IMG/VR virus record: IMGVR_UViG_3300007541_000015
DNA: 64,000 nt
From: an uncultured virus (IMG/VR IMGVR_UViG_3300007541_000015)
Taxonomy: Duplodnaviria > Heunggongvirae > Uroviricota > Caudoviricetes
Strand: one strand, 5' to 3'
The position numbers and the translations under genes are program-made. Within the stretch, counting starts at the first letter, position 1, and each line of letters starts with the position of its first letter. A model generated the notes under the pieces. It made no database searches. It was given only the letters and a program-made list of their open reading frames with translations, and had not been told where the DNA came from. Positions 1 to 61,965 of the stretch are shown here, in pieces.

Positions 1-24
1 GTGAGCGGGAAAAGCGGGGCTAGG

Positions 25-186
25 TCAACCCCAACCCCCTTAAAACCCTCCAAAGGCGTTTTCGTTAACCATCTAAATGTTTTACCCCCCCCCCCCTTTT
101 TTGTCCCCTCCCCCCCCCCCCCTGTGTTTCTCTCTCCCTGTGTAGTAGTAGTAGTAGTAGTATAATAATAATAAATATATAATAAT
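25..186. repeat. Low-complexity non-coding region: poly-C tracts, (GTA)n and (ATA)n microsatellites
   Basis: C runs at about 85-96 and 110-123, gtagtagtagtagtagtag at about 142-160, ataataataa at about 164-186. Confidence 0.9.
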
Positions 187-437
187 GAAGAAACTCCTAC
201 CTACTGTTGCACTACCCTCCTGTTTTGGGCGGTTTCTATTATTCTAGCCCCCCTGCCCGCCTTAGAAACATCAATTTGCATAGTTATAGGTATAGCATAT
301 GAATATACATCATAGGTATAGGTGCAATTGAAACGACCCATATGAAATGGAGTCTATTTTGCAGGATAATATTTCATACCTAAACTGACATAGGCAGGGG
401 AGAGCATCTAAGCCACTTTCATTCTATTCCGCCTTTC

Positions 438-456
438 CATATGGTATGGTTCTTTG
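438..456. repeat. Cassette-boundary site 1 (half-site: CATATG-N8-CTTTG, right arm only)
   Basis: catatggtatggttctttg; matches the right half of the downstream palindromic sites. Confidence 0.75.
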
Positions 457-494
457 TCCAAATACCCTAAGAATACAGATTTTCGGGTTTTAGC

Positions 495-800
495 ATGAAC
501 GTAGCAACCGTGGGGCTTTGTGCAGGACGCCATGAAATCAAGACCAACGATGGACAACCCGTTGAACAATTCATTTTCCAAGAGATTGAGAATCCCTTGG
601 ACTTTGAATACCTTCGGAGCGTTTCCATCGCTTTCAACGCTGCACTCGATGTTTTCGGTGCTGATGTTTTGCACCTTTACGTCACCGGCCTTACTTCTGC
701 TTTGACCGCTTTTCTGGCGGTTTGCAGCACTCCCGACAGCGTGATTTTGATGCACTTCAACCGCGAAACGGGTAAATATGAGCCTCAGGTCTTTTACTGA
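495..800 (+). CDS. Cassette 1 protein (101 aa), small alpha/beta protein, possibly SAVED/Csx3-like fold
   Basis: Leaderless ATG 31 nt after ACCCTA box; GRH...LHLYVTGLT...MHFNRETGKY motifs; followed by hairpins. Confidence 0.75.
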   Translation: MNVATVGLCAGRHEIKTNDGQPVEQFIFQEIENPLDFEYLRSVSIAFNAALDVFGADVLHLYVTGLTSALTAFLAVCSTPDSVILMHFNRETGKYEPQVFY

Positions 801-807
801 GGTCATA

Positions 808-829
808 GGGCGAAAGCCCCCCTTCGGGG
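808..829 (+). terminator. Tandem tetraloop hairpins (GGGC-GAAA-GCCC, CCC-TTCG-GGG)
   Basis: Directly after the cassette 1 stop codon and before site 2. Confidence 0.6.
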
Positions 830-835
830 TCTATC

Positions 836-866
836 CCAAAGTAAGACCATATGGTAGCAACTTTGG
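836..866. repeat. Cassette-boundary site 2 (CCAAAG-N6-CATATG-N7-CTTTGG)
   Basis: ccaaagtaagaccatatggtagcaactttgg; first 20 bp identical to 1309-1328. Confidence 0.9.
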
Positions 867-904
867 TTGACTAACCCTATGAATCTGATTATCCGGTTTA
901 GGGT

Positions 905-1114
905 ATGATGACCCGAAAGGATTTCGAGAAGTTTGCATGGTCTTTTGCTCGAATTGTGGCGAGGCACTCTAACACAGAATACACCCTTTACGGGGTCTAT
1001 GATTTGATTTATGCCTTTTGCGACACCTGCAAGCAAATCAACCCGCGTTTTGATGCTGAGCGTTTTATGGCGCAAATTGAGAAGGACGCAGAAAACTTTC
1101 CTGCGGAGGGATGA
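905..1114 (+). CDS. Cassette 2 protein A (69 aa hypothetical)
   Basis: Leaderless ATG 31 nt after ACCCTA box; MTRKDF...NPRFDAERF pattern typical of small phage proteins. Confidence 0.75.
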   Translation: MMTRKDFEKFAWSFARIVARHSNTEYTLYGVYDLIYAFCDTCKQINPRFDAERFMAQIEKDAENFPAEG

Positions 1115-1116
1115 AT

Positions 1117-1257
1117 ATGGACAACTGTAAATACTGCAAAAGCGAAAGATGCGGAACGTCAATCCGTTACTGCCGGACTTGTTCCGGTGTGACTGAAATG
1201 CGAGCGTGTGATGAGCGAGCAGATGATGAAAGATGGTGCAACGGGAGGCGGTGTTAA
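1117..1257 (+). CDS. Cassette 2 protein B, Cys-rich 46 aa (MDNCKYCKSERCGTSIRYCRTC...)
   Basis: Translated by hand; GGAGGG RBS upstream; two CxxC pairs; followed by hairpin 1277-1294. Confidence 0.6.
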   Translation: MDNCKYCKSERCGTSIRYCRTCSGVTEMRACDERADDERWCNGRRC

Positions 1258-1308
1258 GCCCAAAACGACCAATGACCCACCCTTTAGGGGGTGGCGAGGT
1301 CATTTAGA

Positions 1309-1339
1309 CCAAAGTAAGACCATATGGTTGTTATCTTTG
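1309..1339. repeat. Cassette-boundary site 3
   Basis: ccaaagtaagaccatatggttgttatctttg. Confidence 0.9.
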
Positions 1340-1407
1340 TTGAACAACCGTAAGAATACCGACAATTCGGCATGGGTGCTGAAATAGGCACAAAATGAGG
1401 TATAACG

Positions 1408-1683
1408 ATGAAATACGAGACATACTGCAATTATTGCGGCTACGACATTGTGATTGAAGGGGTTGTAATCAACAATTTCGACCCTGAGGAAATTTTTTGC
1501 GAGGAATGCGGTGAGGAACCGTTGTCCGAGGAAGAGAAAGCCCGAAAAGCCGAGGAACGGCGAACCTGCGACATTGAATGGCTTAGGTCAATTTCGCACC
1601 ACTTCGACACCGAGGCCATGAAAAAAATCGTCGCCTTGCCCGGTTATGCCGACAAAGGCATCACAATGGCCGACCTCGCTTGA
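1408..1683 (+). CDS. Cassette 3 zinc-ribbon protein (91 aa)
   Basis: CNYC...CEEC; GAGGT RBS; hairpin at 1725-1756. Confidence 0.75.
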   Translation: MKYETYCNYCGYDIVIEGVVINNFDPEEIFCEECGEEPLSEEEKARKAEERRTCDIEWLRSISHHFDTEAMKKIVALPGYADKGITMADLA

Positions 1684-1724
1684 ATTGCGAGCAATCGGAA
1701 CAACTCACGGCAAACGCCGAGGCC

Positions 1725-1756
1725 GGACGGGAGGGGGCTGCGGCCCCTTCTCGTCC
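1725..1756 (+). terminator. GC-rich stem-loop at end of cassette 3
   Basis: ggacgggagggggc-tgcg-gccccttctcgtcc. Confidence 0.6.
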
Positions 1757-1774
1757 TCATCGGGTAATTGAAGC

Positions 1775-1807
1775 CCAAAGTATCAAACCATATGGTTTAT
1801 TGCTTTG
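1775..1807. repeat. Cassette-boundary site 4
   Basis: ccaaagtatcaaaccatatggtttattgctttg. Confidence 0.9.
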
Positions 1808-1903
1808 TTAAATGAAATGATAAACCCCATATACCTTCTTTTGGTCGTTTAGGTGTCGAAGGGGGACACAAAACCGGAGACACAACCTAACGAGGTGAAC
1901 ATC

Positions 1904-2422
1904 ATGGAAAAAGATACAGAATATTGGACTTCAAAGGTCCAAACGGTGAATGCATGGATGGAGCAGAATGACGCGGGCAGTATGTCTGAAGTCTTGAGGC
2001 TCCAAAACGACCTGTTGGCGGCTAACGTCGCAAATCCTACCGAGGCGGAACGTCTTTGGACGGCAATTCGCGCCATTGGCGCTATGCTCCCAAATACGTT
2101 TGTCAAGCGCGGTCGCGGCTCGACTCTCTCACCGGAGATTCAGGCCGCTGTGGATTCTGTGGCGAATGCGGTCGAAACTGCCTTTGCGGGCTTTTATGAG
2201 GCGAATTGGGCTCTTCTTTCGGGAATTGTCCTTCCTCACGGAAAGACGGGCGGTTCTTACGCTTCGGCTCAAGATGCCGCAAAGAACGAAGGAGCGCGTG
2301 TTTCGCGTGTTCTGAAGACGGCTCTCAAGGAGGACCGTTGGGATGGCTCCGCTCAAGACGGAATGCCGCTCAACCTGATTCCTCCAATGGCCTCTGAAAC
2401 GGAGGGCGATGAAGAGGAGTGA
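1904..2422 (+). CDS. Cassette 4 protein (172 aa), paralog of 3558-4043
   Basis: GAGGTGA RBS before ATG 1904; shares AWMxxNDAGxM, RLWxAIRAIxAMLPN, GRGS and HGKxGG with the 3558-4043 product. Confidence 0.85.
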   Translation: MEKDTEYWTSKVQTVNAWMEQNDAGSMSEVLRLQNDLLAANVANPTEAERLWTAIRAIGAMLPNTFVKRGRGSTLSPEIQAAVDSVANAVETAFAGFYEANWALLSGIVLPHGKTGGSYASAQDAAKNEGARVSRVLKTALKEDRWDGSAQDGMPLNLIPPMASETEGDEEE

Positions 2423-2454
2423 TTTTCGGGATTGTGTCCCCCTTTGGCCCCTTT

Positions 2455-2470
2455 GCCCCCTTCGGGGGGC
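2455..2470 (+). terminator. UUCG-tetraloop hairpin ending cassette 4
   Basis: gccccc-ttcg-gggggc. Confidence 0.6.
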
Positions 2471-2492
2471 ATTGGGGTTCATTGCAAGCAAT

Positions 2493-2523
2493 CAAAGTCT
2501 AGAACCATATGGTATGGCCTTTG
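2493..2523. repeat. Cassette-boundary site 5
   Basis: caaagtctagaaccatatggtatggcctttg. Confidence 0.9.
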
Positions 2524-2560
2524 AATGAAATATACCTTAATCATCTTTAACTGCCGGTTA

Positions 2561-2938
2561 GGGATGGTTAGTATTTTCCATTCCCTCCCCGGTATTCGTG
2601 ACTGAACGGGTGAAATAAAATAACCGTTTTCCTCAGACGTAGCGAGGCGCGTGGAAGTTGTGTCGAAACTCCTGCTTTAACCCAGCACAAGGCAACATTA
2701 AGCAAAGCACCCCCGCATTGCTTGAAATAAATTATGAGTTGGTGGTGATGCCTAAGTCACATTATGTGGCCCATGATTCCCTATTCCAATGGTTTAGGGA
2801 TAGTGCGTCAAAAAAGGCCTCATAATTGGTCCATTAAGCCGATGCCCTAAAATAATTAAGCGAATTGAATAGAAATCTGAATTGCGCTACCGCCGGGGCA
2901 AATCATCCTTAATTGGATGATTTTGGGGGTAGCGTTTT
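2561..2938 (+). ncRNA. Putative structured non-coding RNA occupying cassette 5
   Basis: Promoter-like ACCTTAATCA at 2534; no ORF of 60 aa or more; multiple helices incl. AATTATGAG(2730-38)/CTCATAATT(2819-27) and a long terminal hairpin 2885-2934. Confidence 0.5.
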
Positions 2939-2946
2939 AACAAACT

Positions 2947-2977
2947 CAAAGACTACTACCATATGGTTCGCACTTTG
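2947..2977. repeat. Cassette-boundary site 6
   Basis: caaagactactaccatatggttcgcactttg. Confidence 0.9.
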
Positions 2978-3042
2978 GTTTATGCAGAACCTCGCCTCCC
3001 TGCCCCTAAGGGCAGGAAGGGTCATTGGTTCCCGTTTTCCCC

Positions 3043-3348
3043 TCATTCATCGTAGTGAATCATCTTTCGCAGCGTGTTGATGGTGTCGAGGCATTCACGC
3101 AAACGCCTCAATTCGTCGCGCTGGTTCTGCCAATAACCATGATATTCATCACGCTTCTTTTGGGTTTGACGCAAAGCGTCCTGTGTCTGTTCAGCCACTT
3201 GCATCAAGTCAATGAGAGCAGTTAGGGTGTTCTCGCTGAGGTCTTCTGTCTTCGTCACTTTTTCAAGCGTTTTTGCGAGTTTTAGAGCATGATTGACGCT
3301 CACAAGCCCACAATTCGTCAGGTTCCTGATTTTCTGTTCTGTTACCAT
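3043..3348 (-). CDS. Cassette 6 coiled-coil protein (about 101 aa, MVTEQKIRNL...)
   Basis: GGAGG RBS before ATG 3348; hairpin 2999-3016 downstream; ACCCCA promoter box at 3398 (-). Confidence 0.75.
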   Translation of the reverse strand: MVTEQKIRNLTNCGLVSVNHALKLAKTLEKVTKTEDLSENTLTALIDLMQVAEQTQDALRQTQKKRDEYHGYWQNQRDELRRLRECLDTINTLRKMIHYDE

Positions 3349-3407
3349 GTTTTTTGCCTCCTTGGACACCCAAAGGTAACAATTACGGTTTATGGGGTAG
3401 CCAATAG

Positions 3408-3439
3408 CCAAAGTAGGCTACCATATGGTTTGGACTTTG
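3408..3439. repeat. Cassette-boundary site 7
   Basis: ccaaagtaggctaccatatggtttggactttg; 3419-3439 is the exact reverse complement of 4135-4155. Confidence 0.9.
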
Positions 3440-3557
3440 CATTGTAAATGAAACCCTATTATTATTTTTTCTTTTGGCGACTTACATGAACATTCCCGTC
3501 CTACGGGGGTCAATGCGCCTAAGAAAAATTGGGGCCTCATGGGGAGATTTGACACAA

Positions 3558-4043
3558 TCACTCTTCCTCGTTCACCTCCTGAACGGGGAAAATCTGAGAA
3601 TACAGCCCTTCGCGGGTTCCATCCCAGATTTCGTCGTTGTATCGCTTCTTCAGGTCAGAAGCCATTTTCGCCGCATGGGTTTCAATGACTTCATCCTGAT
3701 TGGCGAAAAGACCGCCACCGCTCTTTCCGTGCTTTCGCATCAAATAGCGGTTTTCTGCGGCATTCCACGCCAGACCCATTTCAACGCCGTAATCGTGAGA
3801 AATGGCATCAATGAGGGTTTGGACCTCAACAGGCAGGGAAGAACCACGGCCCTTCTTGATTGGCGAATTGGGCAGCATTGCTGCAATTGCCCTGATTGCT
3901 TGCCAAAGGCGGTCGCGGTCTTGTTCGGTTTCGGCAGGGAGGGCCATTTGTGCTTCAAGCACTTGAGCCATCGCGCCAGCGTCGTTTTCGTTCATCCACG
4001 CACGAACTTTTTGAAGGTTCTTTGCATACTTTTCTTGTTCCAT
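3558..4043 (-). CDS. Cassette 7 protein (161 aa), paralog of 1904-2422
   Basis: GAGGTGA RBS; collinear similarity to the cassette 4 product, incl. acidic EEE C-terminus. Confidence 0.85.
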   Translation of the reverse strand: MEQEKYAKNLQKVRAWMNENDAGAMAQVLEAQMALPAETEQDRDRLWQAIRAIAAMLPNSPIKKGRGSSLPVEVQTLIDAISHDYGVEMGLAWNAAENRYLMRKHGKSGGGLFANQDEVIETHAAKMASDLKKRYNDEIWDGTREGLYSQIFPVQEVNEEE

Positions 4044-4134
4044 GATGTTTCACCTCGTTTTGGTGTCTTGTCTCCCCATGAGACAACTAAGCCTTCAATT
4101 TGGGGACTAATAGGGTTTATTTCATTCTTCAACT

Positions 4135-4163
4135 CAAAGTCCAAACCATATGGTAATGCTTTG
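4135..4163. repeat. Cassette-boundary site 8
   Basis: caaagtccaaaccatatggtaatgctttg. Confidence 0.9.
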
Positions 4164-4208
4164 AATTACCACAAGGGACTTACGGATTAACCTGCCCTTG
4201 TGCCTAAT

Positions 4209-4403
4209 TTAGCACCAATCACCTTCAAAGTCTTCAGAGCCCATCGCTTTCATAAAAGCAACACATTCATAGCACCAATTCCGGTCATACATGAATTTAT
4301 AGCCCCTGATTACAGGATGACGGCTGCATTCATATTTGCCCCTTTCACGAGGCGTTCCGTCTGAGTATGTTCCGCGATTTTTCTCATATGGCTTCTCTTC
4401 CAT
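4209..4403 (-). CDS. Cassette 8 protein (64 aa, Cys/His-containing)
   Basis: Leaderless ATG 31 nt after ACCCTA box (4434, -); CSRH...CYEC; hairpin 4170-4202 downstream. Confidence 0.7.
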   Translation of the reverse strand: MEEKPYEKNRGTYSDGTPRERGKYECSRHPVIRGYKFMYDRNWCYECVAFMKAMGSEDFEGDWC

Positions 4404-4440
4404 GTTGAAAACTCTATTTTGAGGGATTTAGGGTTATTAA

Positions 4441-4465
4441 CCAAAGTTACAACCATATGGCTTTG
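4441..4465. repeat. Cassette-boundary site 9 (left arm intact, right arm collapsed)
   Basis: ccaaagttacaaccatatggctttg. Confidence 0.8.
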
Positions 4466-4604
4466 TTCCAAATTTTTTATTTCAATGTTTATTTTGCAAC
4501 GTTGATTTTATTACTTCAACCATGCTAAATTAACATAAAAACTCGCCATTTTGCGCCATTGGTGTCAATCTGGTAGCAATAGTTTGGCCTACCGGCATGG
4601 TTAT

Positions 4605-4856
4605 ATGCCCTACAAGACTACGACAATACGAGGGAAGCATTTGGCTACTGAAGATTCAGTCAAACAACATCTTAGTGCAGTAGTTGCCTCTATCGAGTCA
4701 TTACTCGCAGACATACAGGGAAACGCTGCTAAAGATAGCAAGCAATCCGATGAAGTCAAACAACTCGTTAAGGAGATACAGAAACAATTAAACACAGTCA
4801 AAAAAGAATTACTTGACTACATGAACCCCAAAACCGTTCAAACAACATTGTTTTGA
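4605..4856 (+). CDS. Coiled-coil hypothetical protein ending in QTTLF (clamp-binding-like motif)
   Basis: ORF from ATG 4605 (MPYKTTT...). Confidence 0.6.
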   Translation: MPYKTTTIRGKHLATEDSVKQHLSAVVASIESLLADIQGNAAKDSKQSDEVKQLVKEIQKQLNTVKKELLDYMNPKTVQTTLF

Positions 4857-4990
4857 TTCGATTGTTTACTTTGCAAATTAAACATTTAAATGTTAACATT
4901 TTTTCGTTAAAATAAAAAAGCGCAGGTTAGAAGATTCAAATTTTAAACTGGAAATACATAAATTAAAATTTAAAAATAAACGCTAGTGCC

Positions 4991-5223
4991 AAAAAAATTC
5001 CGCGCCATTTTTTGAGAAACTTTTTCATTATACAGCATAGGTGAGCAATATGAGTTGGGAAAAAATTGTTAAACAAGAAACACATCTTCTAGATGCAAAA
5101 GAATTCATAGACAGAGCAATTATTAGTCTAGCAAGAACAGGCGAACATGGAGAAGTTCGTATGGAATTAACTCGCATTCTCGATAAACTGTGATAAAAAA
5201 TTCCGCCCCATTTTTTTGAGAAA
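4991..5223 (+). repeat. Two imperfect ~29 bp direct repeats (AAAAAATTCCGCxCCATTTTTTGAGAAA)
   Basis: Copies at 4991-5019 and 5195-5223 flank ORF 5050-5193. Confidence 0.8.
5050..5193 (+). CDS. Small protein (47 aa) with N-terminal MSWEKIVK motif
   Basis: Translated by hand; GGTGA RBS. Confidence 0.7.
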   Translation: MSWEKIVKQETHLLDAKEFIDRAIISLARTGEHGEVRMELTRILDKL

Positions 5224-25782: not shown

Positions 25783-25799
25783 CTATTTATGTGATTTAC

Positions 25800-28289
25800 A
25801 TGCCTCTTCTTCTTGATAAAGAAGAATCTCCATCTGAGGAGATTATTCGCTTATTTGAGAAGACTCGCGTAGCGTATCTTTCTGCAAGGGAAGACCCTAA
25901 AGAATACGGTGGACGTTGGCGAAAAGCCATCGAAGATTTACGCTCTGCCTATTCTAAGACAAATGCACTAGGAAGTATTCTTGAAGACTATATTAATAAG
26001 AACGAGTTAGAAAATAAAGAGGCAGCAGACCCGACCTCTCAAATTGCTAGCCGTGTATATGAAAGTGTCAAAACTATGAGACTTTCTGCTGATGAGTCTA
26101 ATGACCCCTTTGTTAGAAAATATAAGGATAAGGTTTTAGAAGTATTACTCGGAGAACCTGAAACGATGGCTAAGTTTGTCCATTATGCTTTAAGAGATTC
26201 TAAAAACGCGCTTCCTGAGAAAGTCTGGAAGATTAAAGACATGGAACCGGACGAAATTACCGCAGGCTTCCACGGCCTTGACTTGGAAGCAGACGACATA
26301 GCCCTGTATATCATCGAGCAATACGGTGATGGAAAGGACTCAAAGAAGGTCGAAGCCGCAGTTGATGAAGCATTTGATATGTTAGAGATGTTTTATCTCT
26401 CACAACACAAAGAAGAGGAATGGGAAGATGTTCAAGAAATTGAGAAAGCAGAAACTAAGTCTGAAGAAGAAAAGGCTCAGTCTGATTTCTTGATTCCAAA
26501 TAAACCAATGTATAGAATTTTTGACATTGAAGATTTGAATGAACTCCGTGGCTTTAGTGGAGATTGGATTATTCAAGAAAAATACGATGGTATGAGAATT
26601 CAAATTCATAAGATTGATAACAACATCAAAATTTATTCATATAATGAAAAGGATATTACTTCAAAATGCAAAGAGCAAGTTGAAGAAATGAAGCAAAAGC
26701 AATACGGGGACTGTATTCTTGATGCTGAACTTATTCTTTTTGATGGTGACGAACCTCTCCATAGAGCAGATACAATCGCTCACATATTTAAGGGTAAATA
26801 TCCCGATGCTAAATTGAGAGCGCACGTATTTGATATTATGCGTCATGAATCCCGCGACCTTGTTGAAGAACCATTGGAAGATAGAATGACTATTTTATTC
26901 AATAACTATTCTGCTAACTCTTCTGAAGCAGTAGCATTCCCTTCAAAGAAAGATACTAGAACGGCTGACAATATTAAAGATATTGAAGCCTATGCAAAGG
27001 AAATTATGGAAATGCCAACATCTGAAGGTGTAGTCATTAAGGATGCAACTTCAACATATTACATTGGAACACGTAAGAATCCAAAGTGGATTAAGTGGAA
27101 AAAATTCGTGGACCTTGACCTCATCGTTCTTGATGTGAAGAAGACCAACAGCAATCTATACTCTTACACCCTCGGAGCAGGGCCAACAGAAGGTGAAGGG
27201 AAATACTTCAAGGAAATAGACGGTCGGACCTATATGGACGTAGGGAAGGCTCTTAACACGAAAATTTCTGCTAAGTTAGGTGACATTATCCGCGTGAAAG
27301 TGGACGAAGTGAAGCCCTCCGATGATAGATTTACCGTTTATTCAGCAAAGGTAATTGAAATTCCTGAAGTTGAAGAACCAGACAAGGTTATTACTTTAGA
27401 GATGTTATCGAAAGACACCAAGAAGTCTTTGAATTATGACGTGTCTGCATTTGAAAAAGGAATCAAGGTTACTGATTTCATTCATGGAGAGGCTACACTT
27501 ATCATTAAATCTTCTATGAACGGATTCAATATTTATGGATTTGAAGAAGACAACTTAATGTCTAAAAATGCTATTGCTGATTTAGATATGTGGAAGTCTC
27601 AAGCAGAAGAAATTATGAAAACAAAACAAGGAGTTTTGGCTACTGCAATTATCAACTACCTTCAAGAGAATGGACCAAAGACAATTAAACAATTACATAA
27701 CTTCTTGAAGAAAACGGTATCTGAATATGAAGATATCTTAGAAAGTAAGGAAACTAAATTACTTGATTGGGCGCAGGAAAGAGATGGCATTTCCTATGAC
27801 CGTGAAGAAAAGAAAATCTATGCTGAAGGAGATAAGGTAGTCAAAGCAGACTACAAAACTCCTGAAGAATATTTAGATGGTAAGTTCAAAATTTACTTAA
27901 GAGATGATGATAATCTAGATTTAAGTATTAAATTGGGTGATGAGAATTTGATTTGGTATATTGAATTAGATTCTGAAGATGCGCTATTTGATTTATTTGG
28001 GAAGGCAGGAAAATATCCTGCTATGGTTGCTAAGACAAAGAGCCGAGGTAAGGTAATTGATTACGGCGATATCAAGTTAGGCATTCAAAGAGATGGCTAT
28101 CACGAATATTTCTTAAAAGGAAATAAATTTGAAACTAAGATGCATCTAAGAGTTGTTCCTGTTAAGGGCAAAAAGATGTGGCTTGCATGGACAGGCTTTA
28201 AGCAGACACCGGCTGATAAAGAAGGTGACGAAGGCAAATGGAACATTTACGAGGACAGGTATAATTCCTTAACCATTCCTGAGGCTTGA
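25800..28289 (+). CDS. lig: ATP-dependent DNA ligase with N- and C-terminal extensions
   Basis: Motif I EKYDGMR, III ILDAEL, IIIa VFDI, IV EGVVIK, V WIKWK, OB domain. Confidence 0.92.
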   Translation: MPLLLDKEESPSEEIIRLFEKTRVAYLSAREDPKEYGGRWRKAIEDLRSAYSKTNALGSILEDYINKNELENKEAADPTSQIASRVYESVKTMRLSADESNDPFVRKYKDKVLEVLLGEPETMAKFVHYALRDSKNALPEKVWKIKDMEPDEITAGFHGLDLEADDIALYIIEQYGDGKDSKKVEAAVDEAFDMLEMFYLSQHKEEEWEDVQEIEKAETKSEEEKAQSDFLIPNKPMYRIFDIEDLNELRGFSGDWIIQEKYDGMRIQIHKIDNNIKIYSYNEKDITSKCKEQVEEMKQKQYGDCILDAELILFDGDEPLHRADTIAHIFKGKYPDAKLRAHVFDIMRHESRDLVEEPLEDRMTILFNNYSANSSEAVAFPSKKDTRTADNIKDIEAYAKEIMEMPTSEGVVIKDATSTYYIGTRKNPKWIKWKKFVDLDLIVLDVKKTNSNLYSYTLGAGPTEGEGKYFKEIDGRTYMDVGKALNTKISAKLGDIIRVKVDEVKPSDDRFTVYSAKVIEIPEVEEPDKVITLEMLSKDTKKSLNYDVSAFEKGIKVTDFIHGEATLIIKSSMNGFNIYGFEEDNLMSKNAIADLDMWKSQAEEIMKTKQGVLATAIINYLQENGPKTIKQLHNFLKKTVSEYEDILESKETKLLDWAQERDGISYDREEKKIYAEGDKVVKADYKTPEEYLDGKFKIYLRDDDNLDLSIKLGDENLIWYIELDSEDALFDLFGKAGKYPAMVAKTKSRGKVIDYGDIKLGIQRDGYHEYFLKGNKFETKMHLRVVPVKGKKMWLAWTGFKQTPADKEGDEGKWNIYEDRYNSLTIPEA

Positions 28290-28326: not shown

Positions 28327-29499
28327 ATGAGAGGAATGCAGACCCTCCTTCAGACCAACGGTGATGATGGAGACTTTATGATTCTCAAAGGAAACGACGA
28401 CTTAATGATTGGCGGATATGCGAGCATTGAAATCGTTGATAAGCAGAACGACTTAATTACACTCAAAGCACTTAACGAAGCAGTTAAGAAATTCATGGAA
28501 CAAAAGTCTTTCAGAAACGTAATGACTAACCATTCAAATGTTCAAGTCGGAGAAGTAGTTGATTCTTACCGTGATAAGTCAGGAAGACTATGGAAAACAG
28601 AAGTTGATGATGTTGGCTTTTTTGTTGTGATTAAACTCCGTGATGATATCGAAAAAGCAAAGGAAATCAATAGAGGGATTAGAAAAGGTTCTCTTCGTTC
28701 ATTTAGCATTGGTGGACAAGCACTACAGAAAGTTAAAAAATCAAATTCTGAATTAGGACAATATAACGAAATTTCAAAATTAGAACTACACGAAGTCACT
28801 ATTTGTGAAAAAGGTATTAACCCAGAAGCAAAATTTGACATCCTTAAACAAGAAAAAGAGGGAAAAAACATGACTGATAAGTTAGAGAAAGCACTAGCGG
28901 AATTGGATTCACTTCTTGCCGAAGTGAACACTCTCCGTAAGGAAGAAGAAGAAATGATGGTGGACGAAATGGAAACCCAAGAGTATGAAGAAGAAATGAT
29001 GGCTTACTCCGATGAAGAGCAAAAAGCCGTTGTTTCGACTCTTGATGGAGCCGGTGTTGAAATCGGTGAGCCTGCTGACCGTGTAGTAATTGACGGCGGT
29101 AAGCCCCGTGCTTCCGACCTACCCGTTGTTAAGGCTTTTAGCAACGATGAGTTACAAACTCTTGACCTTTCGGTTGGGAACATTGAGAAGGCTTACGAGG
29201 CTTTCCGTCAAGAGCAGTTAGAAAAACTTGCTTACGACAATCTCCAAAAGTCCTTTGCTGCTCGTTTTGAGCAAGAAGTTGCTTCCCGCGAGAATGTAAT
29301 CGCAAAGCAGAACTATGATGCTGCTGCTGAGATTGCTTCCCTTAAGGACGAATTTACCGAGTTGCGTAAGTCTCTTACATCTGAGCGCGAAGTAATCGCA
29401 AAGGCTCAAAAAGAGGCTGTTGCTAACATTCCCACGATGGACGATATCGCCAAGATGGATTGGTCTGATGTTCACCGTCTTATCGGAGGAAACCTTTGA
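28327..29499 (+). CDS. Prohead protease fused to scaffold-like coiled coil
   Basis: GYAS..VDKQND, NHS (His), SFSIGG (Ser), LHEVT..GINPEA; HK97-type protease. Confidence 0.9.
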   Translation: MRGMQTLLQTNGDDGDFMILKGNDDLMIGGYASIEIVDKQNDLITLKALNEAVKKFMEQKSFRNVMTNHSNVQVGEVVDSYRDKSGRLWKTEVDDVGFFVVIKLRDDIEKAKEINRGIRKGSLRSFSIGGQALQKVKKSNSELGQYNEISKLELHEVTICEKGINPEAKFDILKQEKEGKNMTDKLEKALAELDSLLAEVNTLRKEEEEMMVDEMETQEYEEEMMAYSDEEQKAVVSTLDGAGVEIGEPADRVVIDGGKPRASDLPVVKAFSNDELQTLDLSVGNIEKAYEAFRQEQLEKLAYDNLQKSFAARFEQEVASRENVIAKQNYDAAAEIASLKDEFTELRKSLTSEREVIAKAQKEAVANIPTMDDIAKMDWSDVHRLIGGNL

Positions 29500-29510
29500 G
29501 GTGATTTAAC

Positions 29511-30854
29511 ATGACAGGTTATATTAACACAATTGCAGACTTAGAAGCACAAACATACGGCGTAGGAAACTTTGGAGCAGGTAATTCTCTCTTAAAGCAA
29601 GCAGGTCTTGTTGGCGGTATTCATACCGGCCACGATACCTCTTTAGGTCTTGGTTCCGCCACAACCGGAATTAGCGACGTTACTGCGCTTTACAACGTAG
29701 TTTACGGACAAAAGGTTTGGTCTATGCTTAACCGTGAATGCAACGCTCTTTCGATGATTTCAAAGCGTCCCTATACTTCTTCCGGTTGGCGTGTCCTTAA
29801 GTCCCGTCCTGCCGGTGGTAGCGGAAATCTCTTTGATGTTGCGAGAAGCGGCACATTGAATGATGCGTTATTGGGTGATGATGCTCCCCGCGCTGATGCT
29901 ATCGGTGGTGTTCCTGAAAATGCGGGTCTTTCAACCGCTGCTGATGGACTTGGGCCAATTGCACCAACATACGCTCAACTCTTCACTTCTCCGAAGGTTA
30001 TTGCTCACCAATTCGACTTCTCTGAGTTGGCTATGGAATTGGCTCAAATTGATGACGGTATTGGCGACATTCGCGCTCAAATGCGTGAAGACATGGGTAA
30101 GCACCATTCTGAAGTTCAGAACAAGATGCTGGTTATGCCTCTTGAAAACTACGGTGAAACTGTCGCAATGCCTCACATTGAGCGAAACTACACATCTTTG
30201 ATGAAGGTCGTTACAAGCCGTGCTGAATTATTAGCACTTGATGGTGGTGTTCTTGCTACTGACGCGCTTTCAACTACTAACAACCTTGGTAAGATTTACG
30301 GTAGTGAGCGAGCAACTGCGGCTTCGTTCTTAGATGCTGAAGTGGACTTTGGTGCTGATTACACCGCAGGTAGTGTTCGCGCATTAACCCTTACTTTGCT
30401 TAACAGCATGATTCGCAACCTGCGTCTTTCGGGTGGTTCGCCAAAGGTCATCTTAACCGGATATGATACAATTCAGTCCATTGCTGACCTTCTGCAAAGC
30501 CAAGAGCGTTTCATGGACCGTAAGGAAATTGTTCCGACTGTGAACGGTGTTCGTGGCGTAAAGGGTCAAGAAGTTGGTTTCCGTGTTTCGACATACTACG
30601 ACATTCCTCTGATTCCGGTCAAGGATATGCCTGCTACATCCGGTGCTTCGACCACAATTACGGATATGCTCTTCCTTGATACCGACCACCTTTGGTTGTC
30701 TGTGATGAAACCCACACAATACTTCGAGGACGGTATTTCCAACGGAAACCCCTTCGGTGTCGGAACCCTCGGCAACCGTGCGCTTTACCGCACAATTGGT
30801 GAAATTGGTTGTTCCTTCTTCAAGGGCCAAGGAAAGATTACCAACCTGCAATGA
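29511..30854 (+). CDS. Major capsid protein (HK97 fold)
   Basis: Follows protease; 447 aa; strongly biased codon usage; archaeal-virus MCP-like motifs. Confidence 0.88.
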   Translation: MTGYINTIADLEAQTYGVGNFGAGNSLLKQAGLVGGIHTGHDTSLGLGSATTGISDVTALYNVVYGQKVWSMLNRECNALSMISKRPYTSSGWRVLKSRPAGGSGNLFDVARSGTLNDALLGDDAPRADAIGGVPENAGLSTAADGLGPIAPTYAQLFTSPKVIAHQFDFSELAMELAQIDDGIGDIRAQMREDMGKHHSEVQNKMLVMPLENYGETVAMPHIERNYTSLMKVVTSRAELLALDGGVLATDALSTTNNLGKIYGSERATAASFLDAEVDFGADYTAGSVRALTLTLLNSMIRNLRLSGGSPKVILTGYDTIQSIADLLQSQERFMDRKEIVPTVNGVRGVKGQEVGFRVSTYYDIPLIPVKDMPATSGASTTITDMLFLDTDHLWLSVMKPTQYFEDGISNGNPFGVGTLGNRALYRTIGEIGCSFFKGQGKITNLQ

Positions 30855-30864
30855 GGTGGATTAG

Positions 30865-31143
30865 TTGGCATTTACAGCAACAACTAGTTCCATTACGGTT
30901 TTTGGTAACAAAAGAATCGTAATTGGTTCTTACACCAATACTGCTGGTTCGTCCGGTGGTGATATTGTGACAGGGCTTCTAAGTGTAGATTTTGTCTCAC
31001 TTACCCCCAATGTGGCGGCAGTTTTACCAACTACCTCAGTAGGAGTAGATGAAACTTTACCGCTATCAGGTGGAACTGTGACAGTTGCTACAGGCACGGA
31101 TGAAAACGGCTATTTCATGCTCGTTGGAACCGGAAGCGCATGA
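30865..31143 (+). CDS. Small virion protein (possible capsid decoration)
   Basis: TTG start with GAGGTG RBS; G/T/S-rich beta protein after MCP. Confidence 0.6.
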   Translation: MAFTATTSSITVFGNKRIVIGSYTNTAGSSGGDIVTGLLSVDFVSLTPNVAAVLPTTSVGVDETLPLSGGTVTVATGTDENGYFMLVGTGSA

Positions 31144-58229: not shown

Positions 58230-59117
58230 TTACCACCACTCATCTAGTGTTAATTGTATTCTATTCGTTCTGATGCTTGAAGTTTCCCACCCCATAGCCT
58301 TATACACAGGTTCTGCTTTTTTAATTACAGACTCAGCATAATACTCATAATCTGCATTCCACTTATCAAACTCTTCATAAGTCGAAGCAGAAACATATTC
58401 CACCGGCTTCTTTTCCTTTGTTAAGGGATGGGTGTAAGTTTTACCCTGTGCATTTACCTTCAAGAAAAGGTAAGAATCATCAAACTCAGTATCTGTGTGT
58501 TCCCAAGCATAAAGAACACCTGCGATACCTTCTTTGATTGAAGGTTTTTTGTATTCTAAGGTAACGAAACTCGATGAATCTTTACCGCACTTTTCGCACC
58601 ATTTTGAATGGAGCATATTTCTCAATTCATGATGTTTTTTACAGTCAGGGCATTTTACTGTCATCCTGTTGTCTTTTAGACGACTTCTCTTGATAATCGA
58701 AGCCAATGGAACATCGCCTTTCAGAACAGATTGATAAGTCTCATAGAGATAAGACGTAATTTCTGCCTGAGATTTTTGAGCAGCCCACATTTTCAGAACA
58801 GTTGTCTGAACTTCCTTCGAGAGTTTTGTTTCGCTAACTCTTTTTGCGGTGTAGCCGGTCATCGTGAATTTTTCTTTGTCTAAAAATACACCATCTTCCC
58901 AAGTAATCATGCCCGCGTTTCGATTCTTAGTTACACCCACACCAAGAGCAGAAAAATACTTCTCAAACTCAAGGACAACGGGGTGTTCATCAAGATTCAT
59001 TACGTTTGGAAAAATCTTACGAACTCGTTCTTGAATAAGAGCAACTTTTTCAAGTGCTTCTTCAACAGAATCAATCTGAACATAGATTGAATCTGTGTGT
59101 CCATAAACTACTTTCAT
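58230..59117 (-). CDS. polB: Family B DNA polymerase, C-terminal half (motif C, thumb)
   Basis: YGHTDS motif C, KNRNAG, G..AKR; Zn-finger insertion; C-terminal QLTLDEWW PIP-like. Confidence 0.88.
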   Translation of the reverse strand: MKVVYGHTDSIYVQIDSVEEALEKVALIQERVRKIFPNVMNLDEHPVVLEFEKYFSALGVGVTKNRNAGMITWEDGVFLDKEKFTMTGYTAKRVSETKLSKEVQTTVLKMWAAQKSQAEITSYLYETYQSVLKGDVPLASIIKRSRLKDNRMTVKCPDCKKHHELRNMLHSKWCEKCGKDSSSFVTLEYKKPSIKEGIAGVLYAWEHTDTEFDDSYLFLKVNAQGKTYTHPLTKEKKPVEYVSASTYEEFDKWNADYEYYAESVIKKAEPVYKAMGWETSSIRTNRIQLTLDEWW

Positions 59118-59332
59118 TTCCACCAACTACCATTTCCATTATAATGCAAGAATTTTGAAGCAGGTGCTTCATGCATTTCTTGGATTTCTCGAATTGCTTC
59201 CCATATAGTTTTGAATCCTTCGATGGCGTTAAGAATATCTTCTCGCTCATCTTCCAATTCATTGATTCTATGAATCGCTTCTTCAAGTCGTTGTTCCAAC
59301 AGATTTATTCTACTTTCATTATCTAGTTTCAT
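59114..59332 (-). CDS. Small coiled-coil protein between polB halves
   Basis: ORF with ATGA overlaps at both ends. Confidence 0.65.
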   Translation of the reverse strand: MKLDNESRINLLEQRLEEAIHRINELEDEREDILNAIEGFKTIWEAIREIQEMHEAPASKFLHYNGNGSWWK

Positions 59333-59532: not shown

Positions 59533-61196
59533 TATACCATCTCCTTTGCTGCAAAGGCGGCTTCACGGATTGCTTCTCTCGCAGATGCGGTAATAGAAGC
59601 GGCTAATTCAACATCAGCCCAACCAAATCCTTGATAAGCAACGATGCCGTAAAAAGACGCCATTAGTCGCTTAACTGCCATTTGATTGTTATACCACTTA
59701 CGGTATTCTAATTCATTACCCGCTTCGCGGGACTCTCTCATCCTCCGCTTATAATCATTACGAAGATTCTTCAGATGAAGAACAGAACGTGGAAGAAGAC
59801 CCAATTCATCTGTTTTATAGTAGCGCATTTCAAATACCCTTTCTTCAGAGAAATCACGAGGAGTAAGAATATTTACTCCAAACTCTGTTTCTTCAAATGA
59901 CTTAGTTTCCCAAGAAATGTTCCGAGCAATCATCATTGAAGGATATAGACCTGCGAAGTCAAACGCCGCTACGTTGAGATGCAATCCAAACGTCCCTTCT
60001 GATGTTGGGTCGTAAATCATAGCACCTTCATATTCTTCTCGTTCTCCATCCTTAGAACCTGTTGGGGCCTTCCACCAAGCATTACGCATAAAGTAAATAG
60101 AACCCATGTGGCTCGCAAAGAAACAAGCATCAAAAGGAGCAATAAGAAGTCGTTGAAGTGAAATGATTGCTTCGCTTGTGAAGTTAGTTTCGTCAATCTT
60201 ACGCAGAATATCAACGTCAACAAGAGCATATTGCAAATAAACGTCTGTGTCCTCTAACCATCCACGGCGATAAAACTCGTTAGGGTCTGTAAACTTGGAA
60301 GTCCAAACCTTACCTTGTCCGAAAAGAGTATTTGATACATAGTCAAGAGAAAGACTCGGAAGGGTTCCGCGTTGTGAATCATTCCATTGACGTTCAAAAG
60401 CAAGGTCAAGATTCAAGGTAATACGTCCCTTGATAGGTTGAGAAATAGGAGCGAATCCTTTATCGCCCTTGTAATACTCAAAACCATCACGGGTTTTCTT
60501 AATTCCATCAACTGCATAAACGGGACTCAACTCGTTAGGGTTCAATCCATTAACACAAAGACGGTTCAGCAAAACAGGAAGGTCGAACTTTAGACCAAAC
60601 CAAGCAATCAGCATATCAGGGTCTTTTGCTTGAACGGACTTAACAAACGAAGCAAGCATATTTTTCTCGGAAGAAAAGATAAAGACTTCTGTATCAAATC
60701 CTTCAATCGCAGGATGCACAAACTTAGACTCTTCAGGAAACCAAGTCCAAAGATAGAACCGCTTGTCATAGTTATCATAAACAGAAATAGCAGTAATAAA
60801 ATCGTGGTATTCTCCACCTTGTTGCCATTCCATATCCCAATACCACTTACGCATATCATATTCAGGTAAAGAGTCTAACTCATCAACGCAATACCTAAAG
60901 TGCAAAGGAACATCGGCTTCATATGTTTCGGGAAATAACTTCCTTGCTTCACTAACATCATCAGCCTGTTCAACATAGACCTTAGTTAGAGAAATACCTC
61001 GAAGATTTGTTTCTTCAACATCTTCATATTTGAACTCTCGCTCGATGTATTTAGTTGGTCTATACTTACTAGGCTTCTTTGCATCTGAAGGAATATAGAA
61101 ATACGGGCGAAATTCGACAACTTCTGTCTTTTTCTCTCCGTTTTCTCTCCAAGATTTAAAGATATGAAAACCTGTATTTAATTTGCTAATAATCAT
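59532..61196 (-). CDS. polB: Family B DNA polymerase, N-terminal half (exonuclease, motifs A and B)
   Basis: FRPYFY, WDME ExoI, FDL ExoII, YALVD ExoIII, DFAGLYPS, KRLMASFYG. Confidence 0.92.
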   Translation of the reverse strand: MIISKLNTGFHIFKSWRENGEKKTEVVEFRPYFYIPSDAKKPSKYRPTKYIEREFKYEDVEETNLRGISLTKVYVEQADDVSEARKLFPETYEADVPLHFRYCVDELDSLPEYDMRKWYWDMEWQQGGEYHDFITAISVYDNYDKRFYLWTWFPEESKFVHPAIEGFDTEVFIFSSEKNMLASFVKSVQAKDPDMLIAWFGLKFDLPVLLNRLCVNGLNPNELSPVYAVDGIKKTRDGFEYYKGDKGFAPISQPIKGRITLNLDLAFERQWNDSQRGTLPSLSLDYVSNTLFGQGKVWTSKFTDPNEFYRRGWLEDTDVYLQYALVDVDILRKIDETNFTSEAIISLQRLLIAPFDACFFASHMGSIYFMRNAWWKAPTGSKDGEREEYEGAMIYDPTSEGTFGLHLNVAAFDFAGLYPSMMIARNISWETKSFEETEFGVNILTPRDFSEERVFEMRYYKTDELGLLPRSVLHLKNLRNDYKRRMRESREAGNELEYRKWYNNQMAVKRLMASFYGIVAYQGFGWADVELAASITASAREAIREAAFAAKEMV

Positions 61197-61197
61197 T

Positions 61198-61965
61198 TCA
61201 CACACCCGCTACATACGGAGCCTTAATGATTCTCCTATCGTCAGCAACGACAAATAAAGGAGCCTCATCTAAGACATAAAAGGTAAGCATTTGGTCTTTC
61301 TCAAAGAAGTTATGGATTGGCCCTGAAAACTCAACAGTCGCAGGTTCACCACAACGAAACACCGTTTGGATTGTTTCCTTGTAATTGTTCGTTGTGTTAA
61401 ACGTGCTTGAGAACTCTAAACTTTCTTCCTTAAAATCTAATTTAAAGACACCGGAACCAACTAATTCACAAGAAGAAATCACATCAGAAAATACTGATGC
61501 TTGAACCATAAAGCAACCTTCATACTTAGCAAGACCGACTGTTGGTAGTTTGTCTGCTTCATACTCAATAGATGCTTCATTTATGGCTTTACTCGCTCTC
61601 ATGATTGAAGGTAAAGATGCCCATTCAACTACTCTAGGAAGGGAAGCCTTCTTAGAACCCGAAGAAATACTTAGGAAATCACCTCTTTCTAGGGAAACAA
61701 TATCACCAAATTTCTTCAGGTAGTCAATAATAGGGGCAGACTGTCCAATGTAGTCGCCTGCTTCTAAAACTTCTGCTTCAATAGAAATATTGACAACCAT
61801 TGTTGGATTTCCAGAAAAGAGGGTAAGAGTATCATTCTCTGCCTTCATATAGAAAACATCATCTAGTTTTCCTGAAGAGAGTCCACCCTTATTTACATAC
61901 TTCCCCTTTACTTGAATCTTCTCCAAAGCATTCTTAAGTGTATTTGAATTTACATTTACTTTCAT
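61198..61965 (-). CDS. DNA sliding clamp (PCNA-like)
   Basis: About 255 aa, two-domain alpha/beta pattern, C-terminal ..APL....IKAP; adjacent to polB. Confidence 0.7.
   Translation of the reverse strand: MKVNVNSNTLKNALEKIQVKGKYVNKGGLSSGKLDDVFYMKAENDTLTLFSGNPTMVVNISIEAEVLEAGDYIGQSAPIIDYLKKFGDIVSLERGDFLSISSGSKKASLPRVVEWASLPSIMRASKAINEASIEYEADKLPTVGLAKYEGCFMVQASVFSDVISSCELVGSGVFKLDFKEESLEFSSTFNTTNNYKETIQTVFRCGEPATVEFSGPIHNFFEKDQMLTFYVLDEAPLFVVADDRRIIKAPYVAGV

Follow-up and report, generated by a model that had tools for sequence, protein, structure and literature searches.

A twin-hairpin joint at the boundaries of shuffled small-gene cassettes in a magrovirus-like archaeal tailed virus

RESULTS AND DISCUSSION

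Nine palindromic sites divide a small-gene block into eight units

The subject of this report is a repeated DNA element, here called the joint, that punctuates a row of small genes near the left end of a 64,000-nucleotide stretch from an uncultured virus of the Caudoviricetes (IMG/VR record IMGVR_UViG_3300007541_000015; this whole stretch is referred to as the window). Exact copies of the core sequence CCATATGG start at nine positions in this block (437, 847, 1320, 1788, 2505, 2959, 3421, 4146, and 4453), and the distances between them (410, 473, 468, 717, 454, 462, 725, and 307 bp) delimit eight putative transcription units spanning positions 437 to 4460. A preliminary description of this DNA had proposed nine copies of an imperfect palindrome with these spacings, and both number and spacing stand, its coordinates for CATATG being the CCATATGG starts plus 1. 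The exact pattern CAAAG-N4-10-CATATG-N4-10-CTTTG occurs seven times in the window and in none of 100 shuffles, while the two outermost sites (437 and 4453) carry the inward arm alone at normal spacing; at 4453, an outer CTTTG directly touches the core. The only other exact CCATATGG of the window, at 17238, lies within coding sequence and has no arms, in line with the earlier remark that the motif was not seen elsewhere. All nine sites of the block are intergenic and separate independent genes. The block is also GC-richer than its surroundings, as had been noted (0.45 to 0.50 in positions 1 to 4000 vs about 0.33 to 0.40 in most of the remaining window). A second GC-rich stretch, 29001 to 31000 (0.46 to 0.48), coincides with the major capsid gene.

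Every unit comprises a half-site, a promoter-like box, a gene (unit 5 has no credible open reading frame [ORF]), a terminator-type hairpin, and a second half-site. Outward from a site, one side leads to the 3′ GC hairpin of the neighboring unit and the other to an ACC(C/T)TAWAW box, with a start codon 25 to 60 nt further on; site 2959, however, sits between two terminators and site 3421 between two promoter-like boxes. Judging from ORFs and visible signals, units 1 to 5 point rightward and units 6 to 8 leftward, unit 2 holds two genes, unit 5 has no credible ORF, and GC hairpins, called as terminators from their structure, follow most units, all as first described. The array sits where a leftward replication block and a rightward small-gene/structural block diverge. 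Its features are listed below; strand is given for genes and their signals, the sites (S1 to S9) having none, and cluster numbers refer to the clustering of ORFs between cores across related arrays.

437 to 466: S1, array end; core 437-444, inner CTTTG 452-456, hairpin GGTAT...ATACC ending at 466, without outer arm
464 to 476, plus strand: promoter-like box of unit 1 (ACCCTAAGAATAC), in line with the family-wide enrichment of box words
495 to 800, plus strand: unit 1 gene (ORF), 101 amino acids (aa), no family, cluster 7
808 to 829, plus strand: terminator-type GC hairpins of unit 1, from sequence inspection
837 to 865: S2, full palindrome at a head-to-tail boundary (motif match)
905 to 1257, plus strand: unit 2, two overlapping genes without family, 905-1114 (69 aa) and 1111-1257 (48 aa, Cys-rich)
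1267 to 1301, plus strand: terminator-type hairpin of unit 2, from the sequence
1310 to 1339: S3, right hairpin GGTTGTT...AACAACC of 7 bp (motif match)
1408 to 1683, plus strand: unit 3 gene (ORF), 91 aa, only sub-threshold zinc-ribbon matches in the family search
1725 to 1756, plus strand: terminator-type 14-bp GC hairpin of unit 3, from the sequence
1776 to 1807: S4, right hairpin GGTTTAT...ATAAACC of 7 bp, ending at the promoter box 1823-1835 (motif match)
1904 to 2422, plus strand: unit 4 gene (ORF), 172 aa, cluster 0 by clustering
2446 to 2479, plus strand: terminator-type GC hairpin of unit 4, from the sequence
2493 to 2523: S5 (motif match)
2530 to 2935, plus strand: unit 5, candidate noncoding RNA with terminal hairpin 2884-2935, no credible ORF
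2947 to 2977: S6, tail-to-tail, a terminator on each side, both arms and both 5-bp hairpins intact, no promoter box
2986 to 3032, minus strand: terminator-type hairpin of unit 6, from the sequence
3043 to 3348, minus strand: unit 6 gene (ORF), 101 aa from the ATG at 3348, coiled-coil-like, no family
3409 to 3439: S7, with the promoter box of unit 6 at its left (about 3387-3398, minus strand)
3558 to 4043, minus strand: unit 7 gene, 161 aa, paralogue of the unit 4 gene (38% identity) in opposite orientation
4135 to 4163: S8 (motif match)
4168 to 4204, minus strand: terminator-type hairpin of unit 8, from the sequence
4209 to 4403, minus strand: unit 8 gene (ORF), 64 aa, no family
4442 to 4465: S9, array end of the form called J; inner CAAAG 4442-4446, core 4453-4460, CTTTG 4461-4465 abutting the core, then AT-rich sequence
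4608 to 4856, plus strand: first backbone gene after the array, a small coiled-coil protein ending ...QTTLF

A symmetric core lies between two covarying predicted hairpins

The anatomy of the site departs from that of the palindrome with two arms first described. The family-wide statistics given here and below are drawn from arrays among the listed IMG/VR matches, with our own simple ORF calls in the relatives; the 132 units are intervals with clustered ORFs, a set from which the near-identical record G001 was excluded. The conserved core comprises 10 bp, ACCATATGGT, with a flanking T in 92% of 534 half-sites (sequence logo). Each half-site can be drawn as a small hairpin whose stem runs from the core GGT to a closing ACC and whose loop holds CTTTG, and this closing ACC adjoins either the TATA-like box (promoter side) or the terminator, so that the joint as a whole reads hairpin(CAAAG loop)-ACC-ATAT-GGT-hairpin(CTTTG loop). 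The CTTTG arm is present in 129/132 promoter-side and 118/132 terminator-side halves, against 3% of random 18-nt windows. We measured pairing as the perfect helix that starts at the core GGT and ends in ACC, in half-sites from related arrays. On the promoter side, its mean length is 5.0 bp, compared with 3.5 bp when the 3′ partners are swapped between sites (129 half-sites), and on the terminator side it is 4.2 bp compared with 3.3 bp (116 half-sites); on both sides, the observed mean was reached by none of 2,000 permutations. Helices of at least 5 bp number 71 where 17 are expected (promoter side) and 44 where 9.5 are expected (terminator side). The stem sequences vary and yet stay complementary, with 19 different stem triplets among helices of at least 6 bp. 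This covariation indicates that the presumed arms are the loops of two small hairpins and that the spacers are not inert.

The joint also holds a regular position with respect to the genes. Its center precedes the ATG by a median of 72 nt (132 units), with the TATA-like box following immediately downstream. On promoter sides, the words ACCTTA, ACCCTA, and TATA are overrepresented, and on terminator sides CCCCGAAGGGG and T runs. An ACC[C/T]TAWAW box starting 15 to 30 nt from the center was found in 82/132 promoter-side and 23/132 terminator-side halves. A scan of the window for bacterial-type promoters and terminators stayed at shuffle level, its consensus being bacterial and not relevant for an archaeal host. 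As a separate observation, a full hairpin and a promoter-like box (3452-3464) lie to the right of site 3421, with no gene before the 3′ end of unit 7 (3440-3557); this orphan box could give a short antisense or orphan transcript or be the remnant of a lost cassette.

Related viruses carry the joint as a single array that cellular genomes lack

A scan of IMG/VR for the full pattern returned at least 196 stretches. The near-identical record G001 carries the identical seven full sites at its end. Of 46 magrovirus-like contig regions (stitched from loci L005 to L086, among the matches listed), 35 contain 4 to 17 cores each, at spacings of mostly a few hundred bp. In five complete relatives (CheckV 100%, 92 to 103 kb, capsid protein 64 to 73% identical to that of the window), ACCATATGGT occurs 7, 9, 7, 5, and 11 times, always as a single cluster of 3 to 5 kb and nowhere else in the genome. 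In records G002 and G003, the cluster lies between a leftward and a rightward gene block and is usually GC-richer than its flanks.

Among cellular genomes, the strict motif was found in 30 stretches of 596 Gb of species-representative sequence, where by our own arithmetic about 27 are expected by chance, and in none of the Poseidoniales representative genomes scanned. The single array among the cellular records is on a 14.7-kb contig (L225/L226) binned with an “Altibacter” metagenome-assembled genome; its cluster 0 genes are 98% identical to those of G002, and it is probably a misbinned magrovirus fragment. Because the genome matches are near the chance number and the sole array sits on this probably misbinned virus-like contig, the strict motif is not a cellular element. 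Literature searches found no description of the motif in magroviruses, and term searches of the main texts of PMC5434244, PMC5332604, PMC11706807, PMC10160649, PMC8651126, and PMC13532342 gave no mention of it.

Cassettes change order and orientation at the core

Related arrays hold the same cassettes in different arrangements. In the clustering of ORFs between cores, clusters 1, 2, 3, 4, 6, and 7 recur in differing orders and directions across arrays; homologues of the unit 1 gene (cluster 7), for example, are cassettes at other positions in two related arrays. The 72 junctions between clustered cassettes comprise 54 head-to-tail, 11 head-to-head, and 7 tail-to-tail cases, of which 51, 11, and 5, respectively, keep both arms, and 65 of the 72 touch at least one promoter side. 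At the terminal sites, the outer arm is missing in 41/55 and the inner arm present in 41/55. The J form, in which CCATATGG is directly followed by CTTTG and an AT-rich stretch, accounts for 13 of the 55 listed terminal sites; the sequence of this array end, which has no outer hairpin, is shared by 18 arrays. When these 18 arrays are oriented by J, cluster 0 points toward J in 21 cases and away from it in 8, occupying positions 1 to 8, and clusters 1, 2, and 3 also occur in both directions. Of the 20 arrays read past J, most continue with a gene for a small coiled-coil protein, whose C terminus is conserved as QT(S/T)L in many arrays; we consider this protein a candidate factor acting on the array.

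The points at which relatives part company fall close to the core. Of 188 blastn alignment ends between arrays, 20% fall no more than 20 nt from a site center, compared with 5.7% for random positions, and most of the site-near ends fall 5 to 24 nt past the center. In the pair 3300021958_000021/3300037961_002553, whole units are permuted, and alignments end at the center ±5 to 20 nt. For homologous cassettes (at least 60% protein identity) with differing neighbors, the inner spacers have similarities of 0.47 upstream and 0.56 downstream, while the spacers across the core reach 0.40 and 0.35 against a background of 0.35. These comparisons indicate that half-sites travel with their cassette and that cassettes have been re-ordered, inverted, gained, lost, and replaced between relatives with switch points at the core; the joint is the only sequence common to unrelated cassettes. 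The earlier view of self-contained units with terminal half-sites is thereby strengthened, since half-sites move with cassettes and sites occupy every type of boundary.

Public sequencing runs give examples among close strains. Runs X1 to X8 contain 65 to 100% of the words sampled from this virus. The comparisons given here use assembled contigs from four runs, in which transcript starts, rare inversions, and circles are invisible. In run X10, a copy of unit 7 (99% identical, 8 differences in 725 bp) runs past 4155 into a different half-site and cassette. In contigs of three runs, the backbone to the right of the array is shared, and the sequence leftward of 4442, 4448, and 4449, within S9, is different. 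No inversion isomers, circular cassettes, or empty sites were seen in the contigs, which cannot show rare forms. The preliminary description had regarded the cassettes as exchangeable or invertible and had held that relatives with a fixed gene order would speak against this. Orders and orientations do differ between relatives, with switch points at the core, and the claim thus holds for evolutionary changes of order and orientation; of ongoing inversion or circles, there was no trace in the contigs.

The host virus encodes general repair proteins, and no recombinase was found

The window encodes a terminase, a portal protein, a prohead protease, an HK97-type capsid protein, and a tail tube protein, as well as an ERCC4-HhH nuclease, a PD-(D/E)XK nuclease, and an AAA_24 ATPase. 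The capsid protein has its nearest named relatives in haloarchaeal tailed viruses (about 25% identity), a ligase gene is embedded in the structural block, and two separate minus-strand ORFs (58233-59126 and 59535-61205) make up the family B DNA polymerase (PolB). Magroviruses, according to PMC5434244, have a capsid like that of haloviruses and a ligase gene within the structural module, and the polymerase of group B is split. The window shows these traits, together with archaeal-type replication genes, and, by this comparison of described traits, fits a magrovirus-like archaeal tailed virus, the setting first suggested for it. As side observations, a 72-aa ORF (59117-59332) overlaps the start of the downstream PolB ORF, and the ligase match is confined to residues 254 to 437 of an 832-aa protein (25791-28289), whose approximately 250 N-terminal and 400 C-terminal residues lie outside any match.

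The preliminary description had also stated that no recombinase is encoded in the window, and we found no recombinase or transposase family among the scanned window ORFs. Likewise, none of the five complete relatives has a tyrosine recombinase (PF00589; controls matched in 14/14 genomes), a serine recombinase (PF00239; controls positive), or a Y1 transposase above the cutoff (PF01797; one 66-aa frame reached 15 bits). The Pfam-matched genes beside the arrays of G002 and G003 encode a UvrD-type helicase, a pyrimidine-dimer glycosylase, and a GNAT acetyltransferase, and no recombinase. The ERCC4 nuclease is present in all five complete relatives and in the window. The portions of PMC5434244 on gene content list a RadA-like ATPase and one or two ligases in magrovirus groups A and B; for groups A, B, and D, they report a LAGLIDADG nuclease that is conserved but has no assigned role.

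Frames of 133 to 139 aa with sub-threshold matches to LAGLIDADG_3 occur in three of the five complete relatives (G005, G003, and G004; L236, L237, and L238). We rejected such a nuclease as a candidate: all matches are below the cutoff, two of the five relatives have none, and the 64-kb window holds no counterpart. In G004, the same LAGLIDADG-like frame stands at both ends of the record (274-417 and 96464-96607), a sign of terminal redundancy.

Cassette products and transcripts

None of the nine cassette proteins of the window belongs to a Pfam or PHROG family, and the early host-takeover or anti-defense role suggested in the preliminary description thus gains no support from family matches. 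Cluster 0, which includes the unit 4 and unit 7 proteins, is found in nearly every array, often twice; the family, with 165 representatives, is predicted to be all-helical and has an acidic C-terminal tail. Sixty members searched against Pfam gave no family except for one chance match, and no solved structure is related to the cluster by sequence. Structure prediction yields a confident all-helical model (pLDDT 94), which matched generic three-helix bundles only, and no function was assigned on this basis. In the related array of G002, a cassette protein (L201, 10459-10743) matches Pfam Kyano_Gp96 (E = 2e-19), a family that takes its name from T4-like cyanophages and is here met in a cassette of an archaeal virus.

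Unit 5 has no ATG-started ORF of 30 aa or more. An Rfam search of positions 1 to 5000, unit 5 included, gave no match, and the predicted fold of the unit is not better than that of shuffles (z = -1.65). Among the relative loci, blastn finds it in the near-identical record G001 and in one weak match only; a variant form is present in contigs of the public runs X10 and X18.

One metatranscriptome run contains contigs 90 to 95% identical to the window that lie inside units 4 (1868-2446), 5 (2530-2572 and 2695-2927), and 7 (3606-4068), and none that crosses a joint. The contig of unit 5 has the highest depth of the block (86), and in that strain 126 other letters stand in place of its middle (2572-2695). 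The contigs of units 4 and 7 begin 16 to 23 nt inside the starts predicted from the boxes. This confinement within units fits separate transcripts but is no proof of them.

Comparison with known systems

The closest described system appears to be that of the promoter-early stem-loops (PeSLs), the mobile regulatory cassettes of T4-type phages outlined by Arbiol et al. (2010; PMC2839356) and Comeau et al. (2014; PMC4122927). To judge from these accounts, both PeSL and joint are short composite motifs of a promoter (in the joint a putative one), stem-loop, and terminator that lie between small genes without annotated function in a hyperplastic region; in both, related viruses differ at the motif by insertion, deletion, replacement, and shuffling, and neither comes with a dedicated recombinase. 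In the magrovirus arrays, we found the stem-loop (as a predicted structure), the variable region of small genes, and differences bounded by the motif. The two differ in that the PeSLs carry sigma-70 boxes and the joint a TATA-like box in an archaeal setting, and only the joint has a strict symmetric 10-bp palindrome with two covarying hairpins, kept even between terminators. Unlike PeSLs, the magrovirus units take both orientations and form a single array per genome with a conserved end. Moreover, the same PeSL accounts report experimental evidence of promoter, terminator, and mini-circle activity, whereas the joint is known from sequence alone. An archaeal counterpart may be the haloarchaeal myovirus HGTV-1, for which parts of PMC3950731 describe a conserved motif of TATA box and inverted repeat before most ORFs of the left genome part, proposed by its authors to regulate transcription and to mediate PeSL-like shuffling. 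As far as that account goes, HGTV-1 and the window are both archaeal tailed virus sequences in which small ORFs are preceded by a repeated combination of TATA-like box and inverted repeat. The HGTV-1 sequence (NC_021328) is nonetheless different, with four scattered CCATATGG in 143,855 bp and no array.

The preliminary description had instead likened the array to an integron or shufflon, and this assignment is not supported. As in integrons, small cassettes form a variable row whose joining sites are imperfect palindromes of conserved structure, one array end is distinct, and cassette content differs between close relatives; the covarying hairpins and the conserved end J recall attC and attI. 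However, integrons encode IntI, whereas no tyrosine recombinase was found in the window or the five complete relatives; integron cassettes are promoterless, point one way, and depend on a common promoter, whereas the units here have their own promoter-like box and terminator and occur in both orientations; and attC is a single stem, whereas the joint is a twin hairpin around a symmetric core. In the shufflon of R64 (Rci/sfx), the Rci recombinase rearranges the 3′ end of one gene between repeats. The likeness lies in the inversion of DNA segments between short repeats, but the units here are whole independent genes, no Rci-type enzyme was found, and contigs contain no inversion isomers. Nor is there support for an element of the IS200/IS605 type, whose Y1 transposase (PF01797) exceeded the cutoff in none of the five relatives.

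A composite module that may double as a crossover point

The joint stands at every cassette boundary between autonomous-looking units, in one array per genome that has been shuffled in evolution. To account for this, we lean, with some reserve, toward a PeSL-like composite module of terminator, junction, and promoter that doubles as a crossover point. Under this reading, the array would be a hyperplastic region of small genes in an archaeal tailed virus of the magrovirus type, in which every gene or RNA forms an autonomous transcription unit and the elements follow one another in the order terminator hairpin, CAAAG-loop hairpin, ACC-ATAT-GGT, CTTTG-loop hairpin, and TATA-like box. In its regulatory role, the joint would be a shared upstream element centered about 50 nt before the expected transcript start, through which a single bound factor could switch the whole cassette set together, while the hairpins, if formed in vivo, and the GC stems would insulate adjoining units. 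As a crossover point, it would allow whole units to be exchanged, each half-site staying with its own cassette. Such exchange would most likely use the general recombination and repair proteins of the virus on short homology or on extruded hairpins, the candidates being the ERCC4-type nuclease, the PD-(D/E)XK nuclease, the AAA_24 ATPase, and the ligase, with no dedicated integrase. A mode of exchange of this kind has been proposed for the PeSLs of T4-type phages.

Several observations weigh against this reading. The seven tail-to-tail junctions among the 72 lack any promoter and would not need a purely regulatory element, yet five of them keep both arms. The 10 bp strictly common to unrelated cassettes offer little for ordinary homologous recombination, the covarying hairpins point to a single-stranded or cruciform form that would be superfluous for a plain double-strand operator, and the conserved hairpin-less end J recalls the attI site of integrons. 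For unit 5, the RNA contig reaches back to 2530, some 30 nt before the start predicted from the box at 2531-2542. Finally, promoter activity, binding, and recombination are read from sequence and assembled contigs, the genes of the relatives are simple ORF calls of which only the 132 intervals with clustered ORFs were used, and both the pairs of the spacer comparison and the set of arrays oriented on J are phylogenetically nonindependent.

Three features beyond those of PeSLs, namely a core that is strict and symmetric, twin hairpins that covary, and joints that persist between terminators, keep dedicated recombination as the main rival, one that we nonetheless judge improbable. By an integron-like logic, the folded twin hairpin would be the recombination site and J the primary acceptor, and an unrecognized viral enzyme or a host enzyme (XerA-like, or a nuclease acting with the viral ligase) would cut and rejoin within ATAT, giving excision, insertion, and inversion. 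It is tempting to read in this way the sites at every boundary, the seven tail-to-tail ones included, the half-sites that move with their cassettes, the switch points at the core edge, and the stem covariation, as in structure-recognized sites. The lack of an outer arm at 41/55 terminal sites, the special end form in 18 arrays, and both orientations of the units, which a symmetric core would permit, point the same way, and tools would be at hand in the structure-specific ERCC4 nuclease of all five relatives and the ligase of the window, of which magrovirus groups A and B have one or two according to the part of PMC5434244 cited above. All of this has to be set against the lack of any tyrosine, serine, or above-cutoff Y1 enzyme in the five complete relatives and the window. 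Orientation is also nonrandom (54/72 junctions head-to-tail), contigs contain no circle, inversion isomer, or empty site, and the strict site is missing from the scanned Poseidoniales representatives, leaving no sign of a host partner site. A specific form of the idea, to which we assign a slightly smaller chance still, is an integrase-free, structure-guided exchange, in which an unrecognized viral protein, or the ERCC4 nuclease with the ligase, would cut and rejoin within the ATAT of extruded hairpins at the twin-hairpin site, with J as the acceptor.

That the sites are purely regulatory, with a single dimeric regulator of an early regulon using them as operators or upstream activating sites, strikes us as less likely than dedicated exchange. 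The narrow distance of the site center to the TATA-like box and start codon, the 65 of 72 junctions that touch a promoter side, and the restriction of the sites to one small-gene block all suit such operators; shuffling would be ordinary mosaicism, and breaks would seem to end at sites since nothing else aligns between different cassettes. This leaves unexplained the intact sites at tail-to-tail junctions, a first promoter of the array that has a half-site only, and a stem covariation that is unexpected for a sequence-specific double-strand operator; strains about 99% identical, moreover, change partner exactly at the core, a repeated coincidence that needs a cause. A regulatory role as operators of one regulator probably coexists with exchange. 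We think it very unlikely that the sites are targets of a viral nuclease or replication function (LAGLIDADG-like or ERCC4 breaks, recombination-dependent replication, or priming) with shuffling as a by-product of repair. The position of the array at the divergence of the leftward and rightward gene blocks would suit this, as would the LAGLIDADG nuclease that the same part of PMC5434244 gives for groups A, B, and D and the sub-threshold LAGLIDADG_3-like frames of three complete relatives, but these frames are below the cutoff and missing from two relatives and the window, nothing ties any nuclease to the site, and CATATG is not avoided in the window (10 copies outside the block). Least of all do we expect the units to be nonautonomous transposons resembling miniature inverted-repeat transposable elements, with terminal inverted repeats TGGT...CTTTG and insertion at TA beside an earlier copy, such that neighbors share ACCA-TA-TGGT. 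The inverted half-sites on each cassette and the TA/AT at the core center have the required form; however, although TA is everywhere, no core lies outside the single array in the five complete genomes, no transposase family was found among the window ORFs (nor a Y1 profile match above the cutoff in the five relatives), and solo copies in cellular genomes do not exceed the chance expectation.

Implications

In the surface ocean, magroviruses rank with the most abundant viruses, and their hosts have yet to be cultured. In any magrovirus contig, the joint is a marker of the accessory gene set, which is probably early. It also offers a sequence-level handle on gene exchange in these viruses and a defined piece of DNA on which recombinant viral proteins can be assayed for binding, transcription, and cleavage without a culture. 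If the analogy with PeSLs holds, archaeal and bacterial tailed viruses would have modular shuffling at composite promoter/terminator joints in common. A joint that turned out to be a genuine recombination site would represent a new mechanism of cassette exchange. Should this exchange be structure guided, archaeal viruses of the ocean would actively trade, invert, and re-order ready-to-express genes.

Features next to the array

To the right of the array, the motif TTCCGCNCCATTTTT (4998-5012 and 5201-5215) is repeated upstream of two small AT-rich genes. It appears to belong to a promoter class other than that of the cassette boxes, an assignment tentatively based on two exact copies. To the left, the first 200 positions of the window are of low complexity, with long C runs followed by (GTA)n and (ATA)n. 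The near-identical record G001 ends near the window start, and public contigs also stop there; this stretch may be hard to assemble or may represent a genome end.

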